A DNA stretch of 60,741 nt from PVC group bacterium (GTDB lineage Bacteria > Auribacterota > Erginobacteria > Erginobacterales > PUNC01), in NCBI GenBank assembly GCA_003551625.1, contig PUNC01000243.1:1-60741 (forward strand), read 5' to 3'. Of the stretch, positions 8,903-56,087 are shown in pieces. The notes beneath the pieces are model-generated. The model was not told where the DNA came from, made no database searches, and saw only the letters and a program-made list of their open reading frames with translations. Position 1 is the stretch's first letter. Every line of letters starts with the position of its first letter. The position numbers and the translations under genes are program-made.

Positions 8903-10324
8903 TTAATCCGCCGCCTCCACGACCTCGATCATCGCGGGATCGTCGATCACGATCTGAACCTGATCCCGGTGAGTGTCCACCATTCCGGTGACCCGGACGG
9001 TTTTATTGAGGTAGTTGGCCCGGAGGGAGCCGAAGGCTTCGGTGTCGAAAATCGCCACGGTCAGCCGATCCCGGGAGTCGCGGTAGAAGTTCAGGCGGGA
9101 GGGGGCTCTGGTTCGGCTGATATAAACGTCGACGATCTGGCCTTCAACAACCACCGTTTCTCCCACCCGGTCCATCGCTTCTTCCGGCGTCACCACCGGG
9201 AGCTCCACATCCAGAATCTCGATGTCTTCGGGGGAACGCAGCATAATCTGTTTCTGTCCCCGGTGCTCGTCCACCCGGCCCCGGACGCGGACCTTCTGGT
9301 TTAAAAACCGGCTGGGGTCGCCAAAGCCGCGGTCGGCGCCCTCCCGGGTCAGGGGGAAGAAGGCGATGGTAAGGCTTTCGCGAAAATCGCGGTGCGTGTT
9401 CAATCTCACCGGGCCGGTCTGGCCGCGGGCGGCCGGATCGTAGAGATTGACGATCCTGGCCTCGACCACGACCTCCTGTCCCAGGCGGTCCATCGCCTCC
9501 CGCCAGGTCAGCGGTTCCGAAGGGTCGGCCTCCACTTCCACCTCCGCCTCTTCCGTCTCGATGATCTCGATGTCGTCGGGCGAGTTCAGCATAATCTGCT
9601 TCCGGCCCTGATAGTCGGCGACCCGGCCGCGGACGCGGACCACCTGGTTCAGAAACCGGTTGGGATCGCCGAAACCGCGGTCGGCGCCCTCCCGGGTCCG
9701 GGGGAAGTAAACAAAGGAGAGGCTTTCCCGGAAATCGCGGTGCGTGTTCAGGCTGACCGGTCCCGTGCGGCCGCGGGCCTCCGGGTCGTGAACCCCGACA
9801 ATCCGGGCCTCGACGGTGACGGTCTGCCCGACCCGGTCCATCGCCTCCTGCCAGGTCAGCGGCTCCGACGGATCGGAAGGTTCTTCCGGTTCCGCGTCCG
9901 CTTCCTCGACGCGCGAAGGCAGGGCGCCGACGATCTCGATATCGCCGGGAGAGCGGAGCATAATCTGTCTCCGCCCCTGGTGATCGGCCACCCGGCCGCG
10001 GACGCGGACTACTTGGTCGCGGAAACGTTCCGGGTCTCCGAAACCCTGCTCGGCGCCCGAACGGTCGCGCTTGAAGAAGACAAACGAAAGACTGGTGCGG
10101 TGGTCGTCGTCGGTATTCAGGCTCACCGGCCCGCTCCGGCCGTGTTCCTCGGGGTCGTAAACGTCGACAATCATCGCCTCGACGGTGACGGTCTGCCCGA
10201 CCCGGTCCATCGCCTCCTGCCAGGTCAGAGCCTCGCTCGCGGAACCGGCGGGCGGAAAGGACAGCAACGCGAAAGACAGCAGGCCGGCAAAGACGGCTCC
10301 AGCGGTTCTTCCGATAACGCTCAT
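8903..10324 (-). CDS. Secreted protein with four tandem OB-fold-like repeats
   Basis: Signal peptide MSVIGRTAGAVFAGLLSFALLSFPPAGSASEA. Then 4 repeats of LTWQEAMDRVGQTVTVEA.IV....GPV.LN......L..V.F......FGDP.RF..Q.VRVRGRV....G..QIML.SP.DIEI. GGGAGG sits 7 nt before the ATG. Confidence 0.8.
   Translation of the reverse strand: MSVIGRTAGAVFAGLLSFALLSFPPAGSASEALTWQEAMDRVGQTVTVEAMIVDVYDPEEHGRSGPVSLNTDDDHRTSLSFVFFKRDRSGAEQGFGDPERFRDQVVRVRGRVADHQGRRQIMLRSPGDIEIVGALPSRVEEADAEPEEPSDPSEPLTWQEAMDRVGQTVTVEARIVGVHDPEARGRTGPVSLNTHRDFRESLSFVYFPRTREGADRGFGDPNRFLNQVVRVRGRVADYQGRKQIMLNSPDDIEIIETEEAEVEVEADPSEPLTWREAMDRLGQEVVVEARIVNLYDPAARGQTGPVRLNTHRDFRESLTIAFFPLTREGADRGFGDPSRFLNQKVRVRGRVDEHRGQKQIMLRSPEDIEILDVELPVVTPEEAMDRVGETVVVEGQIVDVYISRTRAPSRLNFYRDSRDRLTVAIFDTEAFGSLRANYLNKTVRVTGMVDTHRDQVQIVIDDPAMIEVVEAAD
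8906..10228 (-). repeat. Intragenic tandem repeats (about 369, 348, 318 and 288 nt units)
   Basis: Units at 9860-10228, 9512-9859, 9194-9511 and 8906-9193. Units 1-3 are highly similar at DNA level (for example the recurring ccatcgcctcc.gccaggtcag). Unit 4 is divergent. Confidence 0.85.
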
Positions 10325-18649: not shown

Positions 18650-20794
<2,145 letters not shown>

Positions 20795-20803
20795 TCCGTA
20801 ATC

Positions 20804-20829
20804 GGTCCCGACGAAAGACTGTCGGGATC
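20804..20829 (+). terminator. Stem-loop just after glgX (weak terminator candidate)
   Basis: ggtcccgac-gaaagact-gtcgggatc gives a 9-bp stem with one G-U pair. No U-run follows. Confidence 0.25.
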
Positions 20830-20949
20830 TCCGTCGAAGCCGGACAGTTCCGCTTCGCTACGATGATCCGTGATCAGGAAAAGGCCCAGTCCCTCGCCCC
20901 CTTTTTGTTAACTACGAATCACGCAGATAGGCACAGATGCTAACCGGGC

Positions 20950-21185
20950 TGGACTGACAGGTTTGGAAAATATATTAACTCTGGAGCCATAGAGAACACG
21001 TACTCTTACACGTACTCTTACACATACTCATTCAAACCGGGTTATTCCGACAGGATTGGAAAAGCGTGTATATCTTAGGAAGATTGGATATTTTTAACCC
21101 GCGGTGAAACTTTGCGGGTCGATATTCGCCGCTCCCCGAACCTTGAACCCGGAACCTTTGAACCCCGGCACTTATCAACTTTTTT
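20950..21185. repeat. Mosaic intergenic repeat island, copy 1
   Basis: Modules shared with 46.9-47.1, 54.4-54.76 and 55.9-56.09 kb: 12-nt units tcttacacRtac (20992-27), an identical 30-mer (21092-21121 = 54695-54724), and an identical 35-mer (21146-21180 = rc of 54541-54575). Confidence 0.85.
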
Positions 21186-21199
21186 AAGAGGAGGTTATC

Positions 21200-38361: not shown

Positions 38362-38558
38362 GGCGTTACCTCATTCTAATAACGGAAATCAGGCTGTAGG
38401 GGCTTAGACTGTTAGACTATTAGGTAACGACTGACGAACCGGGCTGAAAGAAAGGGTCCGTGGTAAAGCAAGCTGTTTAGCCTGTTAGCCTTTCAGTCTA
38501 TTAGGCAAAGCCAAGAATTAAAACTTTGCGCCTTCGTGCCTTTGTGTGAGTTTGTAGT
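38362..38558. repeat. AT-richer stutter-repeat island between xseA and xseB
   Basis: gcttagac/tgttagac/tattaggt (38402-25). ctgtttagc/ctgttagcc/tttcagtc/tattaggc (about 38474-38507). aaactttgcgccttcgtgcctttgtgtgagtttgtagttt. Confidence 0.7.
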
Positions 38559-46841: not shown

Positions 46842-47125
46842 AAAGCTTTCGTAACCAACTCTTTCGTAGCGCAGCCCTTTAGGGCTGCCCCAGTGAGGCA
46901 GGGCTAAAGCCCTGCACTACGAACTGCGAATTAAGGATGCCCGGCAGGCCGAGTTGATAAGATAATAAGTTTATAAGTTGACAAGTGCCGGGGTTCAAAG
47001 GTTCCGGGTTCTCGGAATAATCCGGTTTGAATGAGTATGTGTAAGAGTATGTGTAAAAGTACGTGTAAGAGTACGTGTTCTATATGTCTCCAGAGTTAAT
47101 ATATTTTCCAAAACTTATTAAGCGT
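46842..47125. repeat. Mosaic intergenic repeat island, copy 2 (between pheS and pheT)
   Basis: Twin hairpins 46865-46921. gataagat/aataagtt/tataagtt/gacaagtg (46956-87). 35-mer core 46976-47010. aataatccggttt 47016-28. Four 12-nt units 47035-82. ctccagagttaatatattttccaaa about 47089-47113. Confidence 0.85.
46970..46998 (-). promoter_or_regulatory. Promoter-like site inside the repeat module (TTGAAC-17-TATAAA), facing pheT
   Basis: The minus strand reads TTGAACcccggcacttgtcaactTATAAA. The same arrangement occurs at 54535-54563. Confidence 0.4.
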
Positions 47126-51100: not shown

Positions 51101-51174
51101 TGGGCGGTACTGGATTCGAACCAGCGACCTCTACGATGTCAACGTAGCGCTCTAACCAACTGAGCTAACCGCCC
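51101..51174 (-). tRNA. tRNA-Val (anticodon GAC)
   Basis: The minus strand reads GGGCGGTTAGCTCAGTTGGTTAGAGCGCTACGTTGACATCGTAGAGGTCGCTGGTTCGAATCCAGTACCGCCCA. Cloverleaf by eye, anticodon loop TTGACAT, no encoded CCA. Confidence 0.9.
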
Positions 51175-51301: not shown

Positions 51302-51562
51302 TTAATGCGGCGGTTCTTTCTTTTCTTCCGGAGACCGCTGCTCGCCTCCTTCCGGAGGCTGCGATTTCTCTTCCGCCGGGGGAGGCGGCTGATCTTCCGC
51401 CGGGGGACGCGGCCTCTCTTCCGCCGGGGGACGCGGTCTCTCTTCCGCCGGGGGACGCGGCTCTTCGGGAGACGGTTTCGATGGTTTCTTGCCCGCGTTG
51501 GCAAGCATATAAACGACTATCACAGCCACCACGGCCACGATGAAAATCCAGATAACACCCAT
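51302..51562 (-). CDS. Small membrane-anchored protein with Pro/Glu-rich 8-aa repeats
   Basis: MGVIWIFIVAVVAVIVVYMLA TM helix, then (E/D)xPxPPAE x4-5. AAGGAGG 5 nt before the ATG, with its own promoter and terminator. Confidence 0.7.
   Translation of the reverse strand: MGVIWIFIVAVVAVIVVYMLANAGKKPSKPSPEEPRPPAEERPRPPAEERPRPPAEDQPPPPAEEKSQPPEGGEQRSPEEKKEPPH
51370..51465 (-). repeat. 4 x 24-nt in-frame tandem repeat
   Basis: cttccgccggggga(c/g)gcgg.. units begin at 51370, 51394, 51418 and 51442. Confidence 0.85.
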
Positions 51563-52200: not shown

Positions 52201-52698
52201 TTAGCCCCCAACGGTTCTTTTCTCCAGGGCAATCAGGTAAGACTTCCAGGCGGGACCGGCCGTAAACCCCCCGACGGAACCGTCGGCCCTGATCACCCGG
52301 TGACAGGGAATAAGGAGCGGCCAGGGGTTCATTCCCAGGGCGGTTCCCACCGCCCGCCCGGCCCGGGGGCGGCCTATCCTCCTTGCCAGCCGGCCGTATG
52401 ACTCGGTCGCCCCCCAGGGGATGGCAGCGGCCCGGAGCCATACCTGTTTGACAAATTCTCCGTAAGGCTCAAGATCGGGACGAAAATTCTCCAGGGAAAT
52501 AATCCGGGCCCAATCGCGGCCGGCGACTTCATCGACGGGGTATACCTCGGGAATCCGGGGAGGCAACCGCAATGACTCCGGTTTGCCGCCTTTCCAGATC
52601 ATCGTCAGCCTGCCGATGGGGGTATCCATCGGCTCCTCCCGCCGGCCGGAGTTGAAGCTCCCGGTTCCGAATCGGTTTTCCTCTCCCGTAATCTTCAT
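52201..52698 (-). CDS. ogt: Methylated-DNA--protein-cysteine methyltransferase
   Basis: IPWGATESYGRLA..GRAVGTALGMNPWPLLIPCHRVI (PCHRV active site). ATGA overlap with the ispH-fusion stop. Confidence 0.88.
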   Translation of the reverse strand: MKITGEENRFGTGSFNSGRREEPMDTPIGRLTMIWKGGKPESLRLPPRIPEVYPVDEVAGRDWARIISLENFRPDLEPYGEFVKQVWLRAAAIPWGATESYGRLARRIGRPRAGRAVGTALGMNPWPLLIPCHRVIRADGSVGGFTAGPAWKSYLIALEKRTVGG

Positions 52699-54392
52699 CT
52701 TCCGAAAAGAAAAGCGGCCAGGCCGGCAATCACGAACTGTCCGTCAATCAATGCCTGGAATACCGGCAGGGGATAAATCCGCCTTTGCTGGAACAGCTGT
52801 TGTAAGGCCAGGGCGTAGACGTAAGCGGCGGGGGCCAGCCAGAGCCCCAGGGTGGGAGCCGCCAACCCCCCCAGCAGCAGGATGACCCCCACCACGAAGG
52901 AGTTGAGAAGCAATACCGTGATCACCGCGTTCTTCGGCCCCATCGTCACCGGCAGCGTCCGCCAGCCCATAAAACGGTCTTTCTGGGCCATGGGAAGCGC
53001 CAACAGCGTGGAGCGGTTGAATACGATCAGGAAGATCAGCGCGAAGACGCCCCCGATCATCTTGAGAGACGCCGGCGGCGAGGCGATCGCGGGAATCAGG
53101 GCGGCGACACCGGCGATGGCGCCGGCTTTCACCGATTCCCTCACCGCGGGCAGGGCCAGCGGGCTGCCGGCCGGAAATGCCAGCGGCCGCCAGCGGCCGG
53201 CGGCCAGAATCGCCGCCGGCGGCAGAAGCGCCGCCGCCGCTCCCCACGCCGGCCGGCCGACCGCCGCCAGCGAAACGAAGACCCCCGCCGCCGACACCGC
53301 TCCCAGGACCGCCGGCAGCGGGATGCCCTTCCGCTCCACCGCCCCGCTTCCGGGCCGGGCGATGTCCGCCAGACGGCGTGCCGCGAAATACTCCACGGCC
53401 AGAAACATCCCGGCCAGGGCGGAAGCCGCCCGCGCTCCGGCCCCGAGCGTGACGGCGGCGGCGTAGGTAAGCGCCCCCATCCCCAGCCCGGGATATATTC
53501 CGCTTCCGGCCAGGAAACTCAGCAGCCGGTGAAACCAGCGGCCGAAGCGGCCGCCGCAGGAGGCGAAGAGACGGTTGACTACCTCCTGGATAACCCACTC
53601 CGGGGTCGAGGCGCCCCCGACGACGCCCACCGCCCGGAACCGCTTGAGTTTTTCCGGATCGAGTTCGGCGGCGCTCTCGACCGGAATAACCACCAGGCCG
53701 AGCGAGGCGGCCAGGCGGGCCAGACGAGCGGTGTTGGCGCTGTTTCTCCCCCCCACCACGACCATCGCCTCCACCTGGGCGGCCACCCTCTTCAGTTCAT
53801 CCTGGCGGGACGAGGTCGAGGGGCAGATGGTGTCAAAAACCACCAGGTCGCGGAACTTCGAACCGATCTTTCGGATTATATCTTCAAACTCCTCGCGATT
53901 CTGCGTCGTCTGGGAGACCAGGCAGACCTTCTCCATCGGGGGCAGATCCAGAGCTTCGGCCGCCGACGAGATAACGTGTCCCCTGCCCTCCGCGAACCCC
54001 AGCAAACCCTCGACCTCGCTATGTCCCCGGTCACCGAAGATCACGGTGGAGTACCCCCGGGCGGCGAATTTCTTGATCTTGGCCTGAACCTTTACGACAT
54101 CCGGGCAGCTGGCGTCAAAAATCCGGGCCCGGGTGGCTTTGAGTCTTTCCCTCACCCCGGGCGAGACGCCATGGGCGCTGATGAACCCGGACCCGGCGCC
54201 TTCAAAATCCGCCGGGTCCCGGCTCGCCCGGATGCCGCGGCTCTTGAGCAGTTCCACCACCTGGGGGTTGTGAATAATCGGGCCGTAGGTCATTATCCCG
54301 GAATCGGAACGCTTCTCCCGCTCGAGCACCGCCTCGAGCGCGCGCTCGACGCCCATACAGAACCCGGTATTTCGGGCGACCACAATCCTCAT
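52695..54392 (-). CDS. ispH: IspH (HMBPP reductase) fused to a C-terminal polytopic UbiA-like membrane domain
   Basis: Residues 1 to about 285 look like IspH: GFCMGVERA, HNPQVV, ASCPDV, TICPST, VVGGRNSANT. Residues about 286-565 carry 7-8 predicted TM helices with ARPGSGAV and KDRFMGWRTLPVTMG, which resemble UbiA-family loop motifs. Confidence 0.8.
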   Translation of the reverse strand: MRIVVARNTGFCMGVERALEAVLEREKRSDSGIMTYGPIIHNPQVVELLKSRGIRASRDPADFEGAGSGFISAHGVSPGVRERLKATRARIFDASCPDVVKVQAKIKKFAARGYSTVIFGDRGHSEVEGLLGFAEGRGHVISSAAEALDLPPMEKVCLVSQTTQNREEFEDIIRKIGSKFRDLVVFDTICPSTSSRQDELKRVAAQVEAMVVVGGRNSANTARLARLAASLGLVVIPVESAAELDPEKLKRFRAVGVVGGASTPEWVIQEVVNRLFASCGGRFGRWFHRLLSFLAGSGIYPGLGMGALTYAAAVTLGAGARAASALAGMFLAVEYFAARRLADIARPGSGAVERKGIPLPAVLGAVSAAGVFVSLAAVGRPAWGAAAALLPPAAILAAGRWRPLAFPAGSPLALPAVRESVKAGAIAGVAALIPAIASPPASLKMIGGVFALIFLIVFNRSTLLALPMAQKDRFMGWRTLPVTMGPKNAVITVLLLNSFVVGVILLLGGLAAPTLGLWLAPAAYVYALALQQLFQQRRIYPLPVFQALIDGQFVIAGLAAFLFGR

Positions 54393-54761
54393 CTCAAGCT
54401 TCCAGGTTCAGGGGTTCAAAAGTTATAAAGCAGATTCCAGATTCTAGATTTTGGATTTCAGTCAAGCCCGGTTCCGCCCATTTTTCATCTCGGGATAACA
54501 GAAGCCCAGCAGGCCAAGTCGATAAGATGATAAGTTTATAAGTTGATAAGTGCCGGGGTTCAAAGGTTCCGGGTTTGTTCAAAGTTATTACTCGGAGCAT
54601 AAAATAGTTTACTAAGGAGAGCATAAAATAGGTTGCACGTCATTGCGAGGAGCGAAGCGACGAAGCAATCTCATTGGACATTGCGAATTGGAAATTTTAA
54701 CCCGCGGTGAAACTTTGCGGGTCGGCATTCGCTTTTAACGCTATGCCCTATGCGCTATGCG
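54393..54761. repeat. Mosaic intergenic repeat island, copy 3
   Basis: cagattc x4 stutter (54431-58). gataag 8-nt stutter (54521-52). 35-mer (54541-75). gagcataaaata x2. cattgcgaggagcgaagcgacgaagcaatc (54641-70). 30-mer (54695-724). ctatgcS x3 (54741-61), which runs into the CDS stop. Confidence 0.85.
54535..54563 (-). promoter_or_regulatory. Promoter-like site inside the repeat module (TTGAAC-17-TATAAA), facing ispH-ogt
   Basis: The minus strand reads TTGAACcccggcacttatcaactTATAAA. Confidence 0.4.
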
Positions 54762-55863
54762 TTCTTTCAACGAATTCCCTGACCGCCCGGCAAACATACT
54801 CGATCTGCTCTTCGGTCAGCTCCGGAAAGATCGGCAGCGACAGAATCTCGGCGGCCAGCCTTTCGGCCACCGGGAAATCACCGGCCGAATAACCGAGGTC
54901 GCGGTAAGCCTTCTGAAGATGAACCGGGATCGGATAGTGTATGCCGCAACCGATCCCCCGGGCGCTCAAATCGGCCAGCAGTTCGTCCCGGCGGGTGGAG
55001 CGGATCACGAAGAGATGATAGACGTGGCGGTTGCCCGGCGTTTCGGAGGGCGGGATCACGCCGGCGGAGTCCAGAAGCTCACGGTAACGATCGGCGTGGC
55101 GACGGCGGGCGTCATTCCATCCTGAAAGACGGGGCAGCTTGACGCCGAGAACGGCGGCCTGCATTGTGTCCAGGCGGCTGTTCCATCCCACGATGTCGTG
55201 ATAATACTTGCGCGACTGCCCGTAGTTCCTGAACATCCGCGCCTGCCCGGCGACCTCTTCGTCGTCGGTGACGATGGCCCCCCCGTCCCCGTAGGCGCCC
55301 AGGTTCTTCCCCGGGTAGAAACTGAAGCATCCCGCCCTCCCCATCTTCCCGCAGCGGAGGCCCCGGTATTCGGCCCCGTGAGCCTGGGCGGCGTCTTCGA
55401 TCACGACCAGGTGATACTCTTCGGCGATCGCCGCGATCGCGTCCATATCGGCGGACTGGCCGTAAAGGTGAACCGGGATGACCGCCTTGGTCCGGGGGGT
55501 AACGGCTTTCCTTACCGCCGACGGATCGATCTGGAAAGAATCTTCCCGGCAATCCACCAGGACCGGCCGCGCGCCCGCGTAGCTGATCGCGAGTACCGTG
55601 GCGATGTAGGTGTTGGCCGCCGTGATCACCTCGTCGCCCGGACCGATCCCGCAGGCTTTCAACGCCCACAGGAGGGCGTCGCATCCACTTCCGACCCCCA
55701 CGCAGTATTTCGCGCCGCAGAATTCGGCGAAGGCCTCTTCAAACGCTTCCACTTCCTCCCCAAGTATGAACGCTCCTCGTTTCATAACACTCTCGACCGC
55801 CGGGATGATCTCCGAAGCGATATTCGCGTATTGCGTCTGCAGATCGACGAACGGTATCTTCAT
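54748..55863 (-). CDS. DegT/DnrJ/EryC1 family PLP aminotransferase (WbpE/WlbC-like)
   Basis: MKIPFVDLQTQYANI..GEEVEAFEEAFAEFCGAKYCVGVGSGCDAL.. Starts at the second ATG (55863), with AAGGAG 5 nt upstream. The 576-aa track ORF is an artefactual upstream extension. Confidence 0.88.
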   Translation of the reverse strand: MKIPFVDLQTQYANIASEIIPAVESVMKRGAFILGEEVEAFEEAFAEFCGAKYCVGVGSGCDALLWALKACGIGPGDEVITAANTYIATVLAISYAGARPVLVDCREDSFQIDPSAVRKAVTPRTKAVIPVHLYGQSADMDAIAAIAEEYHLVVIEDAAQAHGAEYRGLRCGKMGRAGCFSFYPGKNLGAYGDGGAIVTDDEEVAGQARMFRNYGQSRKYYHDIVGWNSRLDTMQAAVLGVKLPRLSGWNDARRRHADRYRELLDSAGVIPPSETPGNRHVYHLFVIRSTRRDELLADLSARGIGCGIHYPIPVHLQKAYRDLGYSAGDFPVAERLAAEILSLPIFPELTEEQIEYVCRAVREFVERTHSA

Positions 55864-55866
55864 CAT

Positions 55867-56087
55867 TTCTCCTTGGGCAGGCTTTTCATACTGCTTTCCT
55901 AAGATATCCCCGTTTTTCCAAACCTGTCGGAATAATCCGGTTTGAGTATGTGTAAGAGTACGTGTGAGAGTACGTGTAAGAGTATGGGATGGATAAGAGT
56001 TCACCTTCGACATTGGACATTGAGAATTGGGAGTTGGACATTCGCTTTTAACCCTGCGCGCTCTGCGCTTCGCGTCTTTTCCCCATC
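55867..56087. repeat. Mosaic intergenic repeat island, copy 4
   Basis: ttttccaaacctgtcggaataatccggtttga (55914-45). 12-nt units gtaYgtgtRaga (55946-93). cattgga 7-nt stutter x5 (56011-45). ctgcgcg/ctctgcg/cttcgcg (56054-74). Confidence 0.85.

Follow-up and report, generated by a model that had tools for sequence, protein, structure and literature searches.

The spacer between a DegT/DnrJ/EryC1 aminotransferase gene and ispH in contig PUNC01000243.1 of a PVC group bacterium is probably a mosaic of non-autonomous dispersed repeats lodged between two cistrons, akin to the bacterial interspersed mosaic elements (BIMEs) and repetitive extragenic palindromes (REPs) and to the small dispersed repeats (SDRs). 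The window analysed is the entire contig (60,741 nt, about 64% GC). It contains at least five low-GC spacers, called hereafter "islands" I1 to I5, which are filled with short degenerate tandem words ("stutters") and each lie between co-directional genes; the aminotransferase-ispH spacer is I3. Judged from the exact and near-exact matches among them, modules have evidently been copied between spacers of one genome.

At least eight degenerate short-period word arrays were recognized in I3, by eye, with Tandem Repeats Finder and with a self-shift scan of our own, which bears out the initial annotation of this DNA as a 355-nt island rich in such arrays. As a simple measure of repetition, the share of bases lying in self-similar runs of period 6-13 was compared with that of 200 dinucleotide shuffles. 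It amounted to 22% for I3, versus about 0% for the shuffles. Three sister spacers gave 8-27%, and five other spacers and four coding sequences about 0%. The features of I3 and the genes on both sides are the following.

52695-54392, minus strand: LytB/IspH gene, on the other side of I3 from the aminotransferase gene
54393-54747, minus strand: I3, the whole gap from the aminotransferase stop to the ispH start, 355 nt, 44% GC
54406-54424, minus strand: GGTTCA-type stutter just upstream of the ispH start, 84% identical to 54550-54568
54431-54458: stutter of four CAGATTC units, period 7
54457-54474, minus strand: short word GAACCGGGCTTGACTGA, also in I1 (~20941-20958, same sense) and, inverted, in I5
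54501-54575, minus strand: module F-G, 75 nt, 92% identical to 46936-47010 in I2
54516-54551: GATAAGNT, four units, period 8, the GATAAG stutter inside module F-G
54553-54590: second set of GGTTCA words
54595-54634: GAGCATAAAATAG(G)TT, two copies 24 nt apart, with no other occurrence in the window
54638-54670, plus strand: module J, the 33-mer CGTCATTGCGAGGAGCGAAGCGACGAAGCAATC, solo arm of a cosmopolitan palindromic element
within 54648-54668: words GCGAAGC/GACGAAGC
54672-54692: words CATTGGA/CATTGCGA/ATTGGA
54672-54692, minus strand: distal half of module K, CATTGGACATTGCGAATTGGA stutter; its 12-mer 54672-54683 equals 56011-56022 in I4
54693-54725: module E, 33-nt hairpin unit (ACCCGC-loop-GCGGGT) containing an exact 30-mer, 54695-54724
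54726-54739, minus strand: proximal half of module K, CATTCGCTTTTAAC, identical to 56039-56052 in I4
54741-54761, minus strand: module L, three CTATGCS units (sense GCAUAG+N, three times), overlapping the end of the aminotransferase gene (four codons and the TAG, 54748-50)
54748-55866, minus strand: DegT/DnrJ/EryC1 aminotransferase gene (Pfam E = 3e-127)

Some ten modules, each 15-75 nt long, make up I3, which is a mosaic and not one bounded element. Neither I3 nor any of its modules is flanked by terminal inverted repeats or target duplications, and its first designation as copy 3 of an element is in this respect misleading.

Modules common to several spacers

The other islands, with two further features outside I3, are located as follows.

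20784-20803, plus strand: stutter of three GTAATCN units over the glgX stop (TAA 20792-20794)
20795-21199, plus strand: I1, glgX to the DUF1015 gene, 405 nt, modules A-B-C-D-E-F
38363-38558, minus strand: I5, downstream of xseA, same style with other words (TTAGACTN, GTTAGCCT, CTTYGTGC)
46842-47125, minus strand: I2, pheS to pheT, modules A-B-C-F-G-H
46866-46923, minus strand: module H, inverted GTAG-hairpin doublet, TTCGTAG-T-GCAGGGC-TTTA-GCCCTGC ... GCAGCCC-TAAA-GGGCTGC-G-CTACGAA
55867-56087, minus strand: I4, GT2 gene to the aminotransferase gene, 221 nt, modules L-K-B-C-D

The modules are distributed over the islands in this way.

Module A (I1, I2): TTGGAAAATATATTAACTCTGGAG..
Module B (I1, I2, I4): 12-nt array ACACGTACTCTT, with 2.8, 3.8 and 3.4 units respectively
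Module C (I1, I2, I4): TCAAACCGGRTTATTCCGA
Module D (I1, I4): CAGG.TTGGAAAA.CG.G.ATATCTTAGGAA
Module E (I1, I3): 30-mer hairpin
Module F-G (F in I1, I2 and I3; G in I2 and I3): GAACC stutter, GGCACTTATCAACTT, CTTATC stutter
Module H (I2): GTAG-hairpin doublet
Module J (I3): 33-mer
Module K (I3, I4): GTTAAAAGCGAATG..CCAATTC.CAATGTCCAATG
Module L (I3, I4): GC-rich 7-nt stutter directly past the stop

Two exact words link I3 to I1. The 30-mer at 54695-54724 is identical to 21092-21121 on the same strand of the contig, and a 36-mer at 54540-54575 is the reverse complement of 21146-21181. Both had been seen from the start, the longer one as a 35-mer, which is one nucleotide too short. I1 lies between plus-strand genes and I3 between minus-strand genes, so that the 30-mer is inverted relative to transcription and the longer word keeps its orientation, as had been proposed. 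The 36-mer belongs to module F-G, together with the GGTTCA/GAACC stutter and the 8-nt GATAAG stutter. Besides these exact words, the spacers share matches of 75 nt at 92% and of 76 nt at 92%. All matches of I3 within the window that reach at least 14 nt fall in I1, I2 or I4. Of two 12-nt matches, one falls in I4; the other, GC-rich and outside the islands, is a chance match. At 11 nt the number of matches is about what chance predicts. I5 has only 10-nt words in common with the other islands.

To compare module order, each island was written in the direction of transcription. Co-occurring pairs of modules keep one order and one sense orientation across four islands, with two exceptions: module E, the sole module inverted relative to transcription (in I3), and the 17-nt word GAACCGGGCTKGACTGA, which in I1 precedes F and in I3 follows G. 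The modules are thus a recurring mosaic, as annotated, but the claim that they were recombined independently is weak, given that order and orientation are kept with these two exceptions. From their sequences, the islands look like differently trimmed copies of one common arrangement with a few small insertions, and not like the product of free shuffling. One insertion is nested: I4 reads TTGGA|CATTCGCTTTTAAC without interruption (TTGGA|CATTCGC), whereas in I3 33 nt, AATTTTAACCCGCGGTGAAACTTTGCGGGTCGG, lie between the same flanks. No target-site duplication was found at this hairpin insertion or at a 90-nt indel described below, save for a 4-nt GCAG microhomology. Because the shared modules keep order and orientation, copying in blocks with differential deletion and insertion can explain most of the pattern.

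A separate observation concerns module C (TCAAACCGGATTATTCCGA; 47012-47030 and 55927-45), which is identical to ..KPDYSE.. coding sequence in genes for TPR-repeat proteins on many unrelated metagenome contigs; this may be a coincidence or a remnant.

Reading-frame ends and related genomes

The CTATGCS stutter enters the end of the aminotransferase gene and the GTAATCN array spans the glgX stop, both as initially annotated. The aminotransferase ends in ..REFVERTHSA*, with T-H-S-A-TAG (54748-54762) inside the stutter, and GlgX ends in ..LEEAKAGNQ*, with its TAA inside the array. The residues encoded by stutters are not conserved in homologues. Past ..REF, the aminotransferase tails differ in sequence and length in 60 of the 60 best homologues; the closest relative (L005) has a TAA six codons earlier with no stutter after it, and the GlgX tail of a syntenic relative reads ..FKTDYQQP*. 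The refutation test given with the initial annotation, which looks for the same C-terminal residues in orthologues, therefore did not refute it. The paralogue of module L in I4 (~56053-56075) lies about 10 nt past the GT2 stop, is wholly non-coding, and can be aligned to the final 4-6 codons of the aminotransferase gene. As one 70% identical homologue ends in ..REFVERR, the residues V-E-R may predate module L. These comparisons indicate that the two frames end within repeat modules, in tails that tolerate change, and nothing further is shown by them. The initial annotation went on to suggest that the process generating stutters also shapes the 3' ends of coding sequences. Stutters do reach two frame ends, but a single process is one step beyond this, since a module landing at or next to a stop codon fits equally well. 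Where a module came to abut a stop codon, the frame would run into it and acquire a non-conserved tail, such as ..(ER)THSA* or ..GNQ*.

The junctions occupied by two of the islands are very short in relatives. The gap between glgX and the DUF1015 gene is 15 nt in a 71% identical syntenic relative (L056), versus 405 nt for I1. Likewise, the GT2-DegT gap is 33 nt in a 70% identical relative having the same GFO-hexapeptide-GT2-DegT row (L002), versus 221 nt for I4. Comparison with these syntenic relatives shows I1 and I4 to be lineage-specific expansions. The genes pheS and pheT are adjacent in one relative too. For I3, no empty orthologous site was found among the relatives retrieved, whose aminotransferase genes precede other genes, and the region downstream of the aminotransferase gene is not conserved in L005. 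In L001 (2042-11839) and L002 (11285-21104), a giant beta-helix/NosD-type protein of about 5,900 residues is encoded after the aminotransferase, and not ispH.

In L005, whose aminotransferase is 82% identical, modules C and D precede the aminotransferase gene. The contig of L005 begins inside array B, which suggests that assembly broke there, and such repeats are thus of concern for assembly. The C-D segment is identical to that of the window at 62 of 65 positions, and identity is 100% over the 31 bases that lead up to the start region and include it. By comparison, the aminotransferase coding sequence is 78% identical overall, and its third codon positions are 60% identical. Of I4, at least the part near the gene looks constrained. 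L005 has in addition a 90-nt block with its own hairpin and stutter, placed precisely between ..AAAGCAG and TATGAAAAGCC, with near-identical flanks. The empty junctions in relatives and this block show that the islands are gained, lost and remodelled in blocks.

Known repeat families and alternative explanations

Each of the known families considered fails, for the islands, on at least one defining feature. BIMEs are reportedly built from REP or palindromic (PU) units in enterobacteria, and REPs and their inverted doublets (REPINs) are said to go with a REP-associated tyrosine transposase (RAYT). A REP is a short imperfect palindrome following GT(A/G)G, present in tens to hundreds of copies per genome, and RAYT is a Y1 HUH transposase. 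The islands resemble BIMEs in being dispersed non-coding mosaics of short motifs, of site-variable content, in spacers between co-directional genes or after genes; modules are common to four spacers between co-directional genes, with transcription presumed. Module H of I2 has both the GTAG followed by a palindrome and the inverted-doublet form of a REPIN (-37.7 kcal/mol, z = -4.0), and nothing comparable exists in I3. A scan for GTAG next to a perfect stem of at least 6 bp gave non-coding matches only at 46866-46923, and none in 54393-54761. I3 differs from a BIME in lacking any REP-type palindrome, its sole palindromic unit being one 7-bp hairpin. The island modules are mostly unstructured stutters in one orientation, unlike the alternating PU units. 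Moreover, no RAYT was seen among the window proteins, there is one doublet in the 60.7-kb contig, and some of the island modules cross phyla, whereas REPs are lineage-specific.

The likeness to short tandemly repeated repetitive (STRR) sequences, reportedly heptamer repeats, and to the SDRs said to occur in Nostocaceae lies in dispersed spacer units of about 20-30 nt, many made of tandem imperfect heptamers, and in their nesting into mosaics. Period-7 arrays are present at 54431-54458, 54741-54761 and 20784-20803, along with period-8 and period-12 arrays, and the 33-nt hairpin unit within module K, uninterrupted in I4, is one clear case of nesting. The taxon differs (the nearest named homologues are from Ca. 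Auribacterota and the PVC group), and so do the words, which are unlike the known STRR heptamers; the islands also mix periods of 7, 8 and 12 nt and have modules of up to 75 nt. To our knowledge, SDRs have been reported only in Nostocaceae, and SDR1-8 and STRR1-3 are restricted to heterocystous cyanobacteria. The SDRs of Nostocaceae are mentioned in PMC5861425.

Pneumococcal BOX elements, which are reportedly intergenic too, have few module types in fixed order and variable number and are transcribed with their neighbours. A BOX has only three modules (A, B, C), a stable fold and clear ends, in contrast to about ten types, no ends and z = +0.1 for the fold of I3. Rickettsia palindromic elements, a family said to insert into genes, likewise let a non-coding repeat supply codons to a host protein where change is tolerated. 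They are, however, palindromic and lie in frame inside genes, whereas here a repeat supplies just 3-6 terminal codons and the stop. Miniature inverted-repeat transposable elements differ by their terminal inverted repeats and target-site duplications, which the islands lack. PeSLs (promoter early stem-loops) are mobile regulatory cassettes of T4-type phages (PMC2839356, PMC4122927). They are small intergenic motifs beside gene starts, repeated along the genome and linked to indels and replacements, and the layout of GTAG hairpins in phages described below matches theirs. A PeSL is an early promoter with a stem-loop, found in T4-like phages only, whereas most island modules have no stem-loop and their promoters are putative. 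Of all these families, BIME and REP mosaics, STRR and SDR units, BOX elements and, as regards the hairpin modules, PeSLs come nearest to the islands.

As RNA, I3 folds no better than shuffled sequences. I4 folds worse than 200 of 200 shuffles (z = +2.3), I1 is marginal (z = -1.0), and I2 is structured (z = -3.5) owing solely to module H, which can form two hairpins or one long one. The stability of hairpin E is modest (about -12 kcal/mol, z = -1.5 to -1.9), and the 33-mer of module J is by itself unstructured (z about 0). The sense strand of the islands is G-poor, with a C>G skew of 0.05-0.16 overall and local peaks of 0.4-0.8, only moderate as a basis for the idea of Rho utilisation. Rfam 15 gave, at the gathering score, only tRNAs in the window, with no match in the islands or in 13 loci of the cosmopolitan palindrome; at E<=1, matches were at chance level (RybB, HOTAIR and mir-143, E = 0.1-0.5), the RybB one (E=0.51) lying in I4. 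The single terminator-like match in I3 is on the antisense strand. Two promoter-like strings of the sense strand fall just short of the rules of our scan, TTGAAC-17-TATAAA in module F-G (54563-54535) and CCGACA-18-TATCTT in module D. These putative promoters are leads only.

Under the mosaic reading, the junction was probably very short at first, and about ten non-coding modules would have accumulated there. Growth could have followed three routes: non-reciprocal copying of module blocks from spacer to spacer, insertion of small hairpin mini-elements, some of them horizontally acquired, and replication slippage of 7-12-nt units, which would yield stutters and microhomology for more indels. The islands are probably co-transcribed with their neighbours, because the flanking genes run in one direction (pheS-pheT, GT2-DegT) and the sense orientation of the modules is maintained. 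The resulting RNA would be G-poor and largely unstructured, with few discrete hairpins. Any function would most likely be exerted at the level of RNA or transcription, with hairpins serving as protectors of 3' or 5' ends or as processing sites, and an internal promoter might reside in modules D and F-G. A regulatory role of the islands is unproven.

Several observations weigh against this reading. A Pfam scan of 19 window proteins revealed no transposase or RAYT, and with no terminal repeats or target duplications either, the copying mechanism is not accounted for. The number of copies is drawn from five islands in one 60-kb contig. In a scan of genome collections, just two other species had the GGTTCA 20-mer; among viral contigs, neither the 30-mer hairpin nor the GGTTCA 19-mer had a match; and a metagenome scan with module C gave 20 of 20 matches unrelated to the islands, mostly in TPR-type coding sequence. 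Scans with sigma-70 and intrinsic-terminator consensus sequences stayed at background level on the sense strand. Finally, the gene-proximal part of I4 is 95-100% conserved, versus 60% at third codon positions, which argues for selection on some modules, not predicted by a purely neutral or selfish account.

That conservation also bears on an explanation which overlaps with the mosaic one, and which we hold possible though doubtful: the island would be a selected regulatory cassette, a PeSL-like composite of terminator, promoter and 5' untranslated region that uncouples adjacent genes. Hairpin E would serve to terminate the aminotransferase transcript or to protect it, the promoter-like string of F-G would restart transcription for ispH, and that of D would do so for the aminotransferase gene. 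Not only are I4 C-D and the proximal 31 nt conserved, but modules also keep their sense orientation and their polarity from stop to start (L-K after stops, D or F before starts), the cosmopolitan GTAG hairpin stands directly before the ribosome-binding sites of successive phage genes, and PeSLs have been described as small composite terminator/promoter motifs mediating indels (PMC4122927, PMC2839356). The three copies of D show five differences, every one of them within the 18-nt stretch that separates the hexamers, but this is not significant (roughly p = 0.2 by our own estimate). The consensus scans showed no sense-strand promoter or terminator above background, the TATAAA lacks the conserved T at -7, and hairpin E has no U tract in either orientation. 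In I1, module F ends 8 nt before the Shine-Dalgarno sequence, which leaves no promoter there for a leadered mRNA, and relatives manage with junctions of 15-33 nt. The stutters may also be seen as functional operators rather than by-products of slippage, that is, as platforms where an oligomeric RNA- or DNA-binding protein places one subunit per unit. TRAP and HutP read spaced triplets; the sense strand of module L gives UAG-N4-UAG-N4-UAG, a spacing known for HutP, and units vary mainly at their last one or two positions around a 6-nt core (GTAATC-N, CTATGC-S). Such a spacing arises, however, from any 7-nt period, a separate protein would be needed for each of at least a dozen unrelated words in 60 kb, arrays run into coding ends and do not have the same number of units in paralogous copies, and no candidate binding protein was identified. 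We therefore deem binding platforms very improbable.

There is still less to be said for an origin of I3 in place, by slippage and drift of a low-constraint AT-rich spacer, with convergent likeness to the other islands, or for an assembly artefact. Stutters are the expected product of slippage, and the break of the closest relative's contig in a 12-nt array shows that repeats do disturb assembly. Yet exact 30- and 36-mers and 75 nt at 92%, in spacers tens of kb apart, cannot be convergent, and the joins are not chimeric, since glgX-DUF1015 and GT2-DegT are syntenic and pheS-pheT adjacent in a relative; either version is hardly credible. It is just as hard to believe that I3 encodes a product of its own, be it a small RNA or the 76-aa protein of an open reading frame (ORF) at 54394-54624 (minus strand). 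This ORF starts with ATG, spans most of I3 and ends next to the ispH start, but it has no Shine-Dalgarno sequence and its frame passes through the stutters without a break (..KPGTFEP..FEPLNLEA*). I3 gave no Rfam match at E<=1, its RNA is no more structured than shuffles, and the region past the aminotransferase gene is not conserved in the 82% relative. The ORF is probably of the spurious type that such repeats generate in automatic annotation, where they yield false ORFs and altered protein tails.

Modules in other phyla and in phages, and neighbouring genes

Exact 23- to 33-mers are common to this Auribacterota-like contig, an alphaproteobacterial plasmid, a Desulfosarcina metagenome-assembled genome (MAG) and viral contigs. 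This sharing of non-coding modules across phyla and with phages is the most interesting point of the analysis. The 26-mer core of module J had 30 exact matches in 28 IMG/VR loci, with GC contents of 39-70%, most of which have the full 33-mer without mismatch. An exact copy is also present in plasmid pOB3b1 of Methylosinus trichosporium, where it is unannotated and, with convergent genes on both sides, supplies one side of a long hairpin. Most loci have an imperfect palindrome with a loop of 10-40 nt, of which the 33-mer is one arm, whereas the window has a solo arm. The 33-mer is absent from the INPHARED phage records; neither an Rfam family nor an annotation was found for it, and a literature search by sequence strings gave no relevant paper.

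Module H consists of TTCGTAG-N-GCAGGGC-TTTA-GCCCTGC, followed after 8 nt by an inverted partner with the stem arms swapped (GCAGCCC..GGGCTGC). Its 23-mer occurs 26 times in 12 related phage contigs, at 2-4 per contig, always 1-3 nt upstream of a Shine-Dalgarno sequence, before successive genes and co-oriented with them. In another phage, the 33-mer takes the place of the GTAG hairpin at one homologous position. The GGTTCA word of module F recurs as an exact 25-mer in a Desulfosarcina MAG spacer packed with other stutters. In a relative with 65% identity in PheS, spacers are filled with stutter-armed hairpins, including the GTAATC word, and such hairpins exist in Ca. Erginobacter too.

Relatives and unrelated MAGs also carry hairpins with 7-9-nt stutter arms (CACGAAGN, ACCAAGGC, GTAATCA, CACAGAGA) or long stutter arrays, so that the stutter style is widespread past this contig. 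Those located are the following.

L027, 9808-9901, 11030-11115 and 18650-18739: stutter-armed hairpins or arrays
L069, 2835-2975: stutter-armed hairpin or array
L004, 3799-3863, 5901-5937 and 7105-7165: stutter-armed hairpins or arrays

The modules might, on a broad and rather unlikely view, form a cross-phylum pool of portable intercistronic elements of about 20-35 nt, exchanged between bacteria and phages and serving as interchangeable punctuation of polycistronic mRNAs, with stutter arrays as the footprint of insertion and turnover by a mechanism not yet described. The identity of some modules across phyla and phages raises the question of how non-coding sequences of 20-35 nt spread or stay constant.

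The closest named homologues of the flanking proteins belong to the PVC group, namely to Ca. Erginobacter and Ca. Euphemobacter (Ca. Auribacterota), 'PVC group bacterium', Phycisphaerae and Verrucomicrobia. The lineage is poorly sampled, as the named homologues of PheS and DUF1015 are just 60-65% identical and the best unnamed matches (71-77%) are few. If the mosaic reading is true, a little-known lineage of the PVC group has a vocabulary of tiny repeats by which its operon junctions are lengthened. The database entry of the aminotransferase begins at the second ATG, and an exact look-up from the first ATG gave no match. GC skew in the window may merely track gene orientation, and it does not decide whether replication strand is the cause of module orientation.

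IspH/LytB has a very hydrophobic C-terminal extension of about 290 residues (52695-53567, minus strand) without Pfam match, whose appearance is that of a membrane domain and not of the S1 fusion known in some bacteria. Away from the islands, a 473-aa ORF at 8903-10324 (minus strand) contains three tandem units of 348-369 nt (9191-10207), 65-76% identical, with weak Pfam matches of OB-fold type only; it looks like an internally triplicated domain protein. Four tandem 24-nt repeats (TCTCTTCCGCCGGGGGACGCGGCC) are present at 51323-51462, apparently in a small minus-strand ORF beside a tRNA gene (51101-51174).

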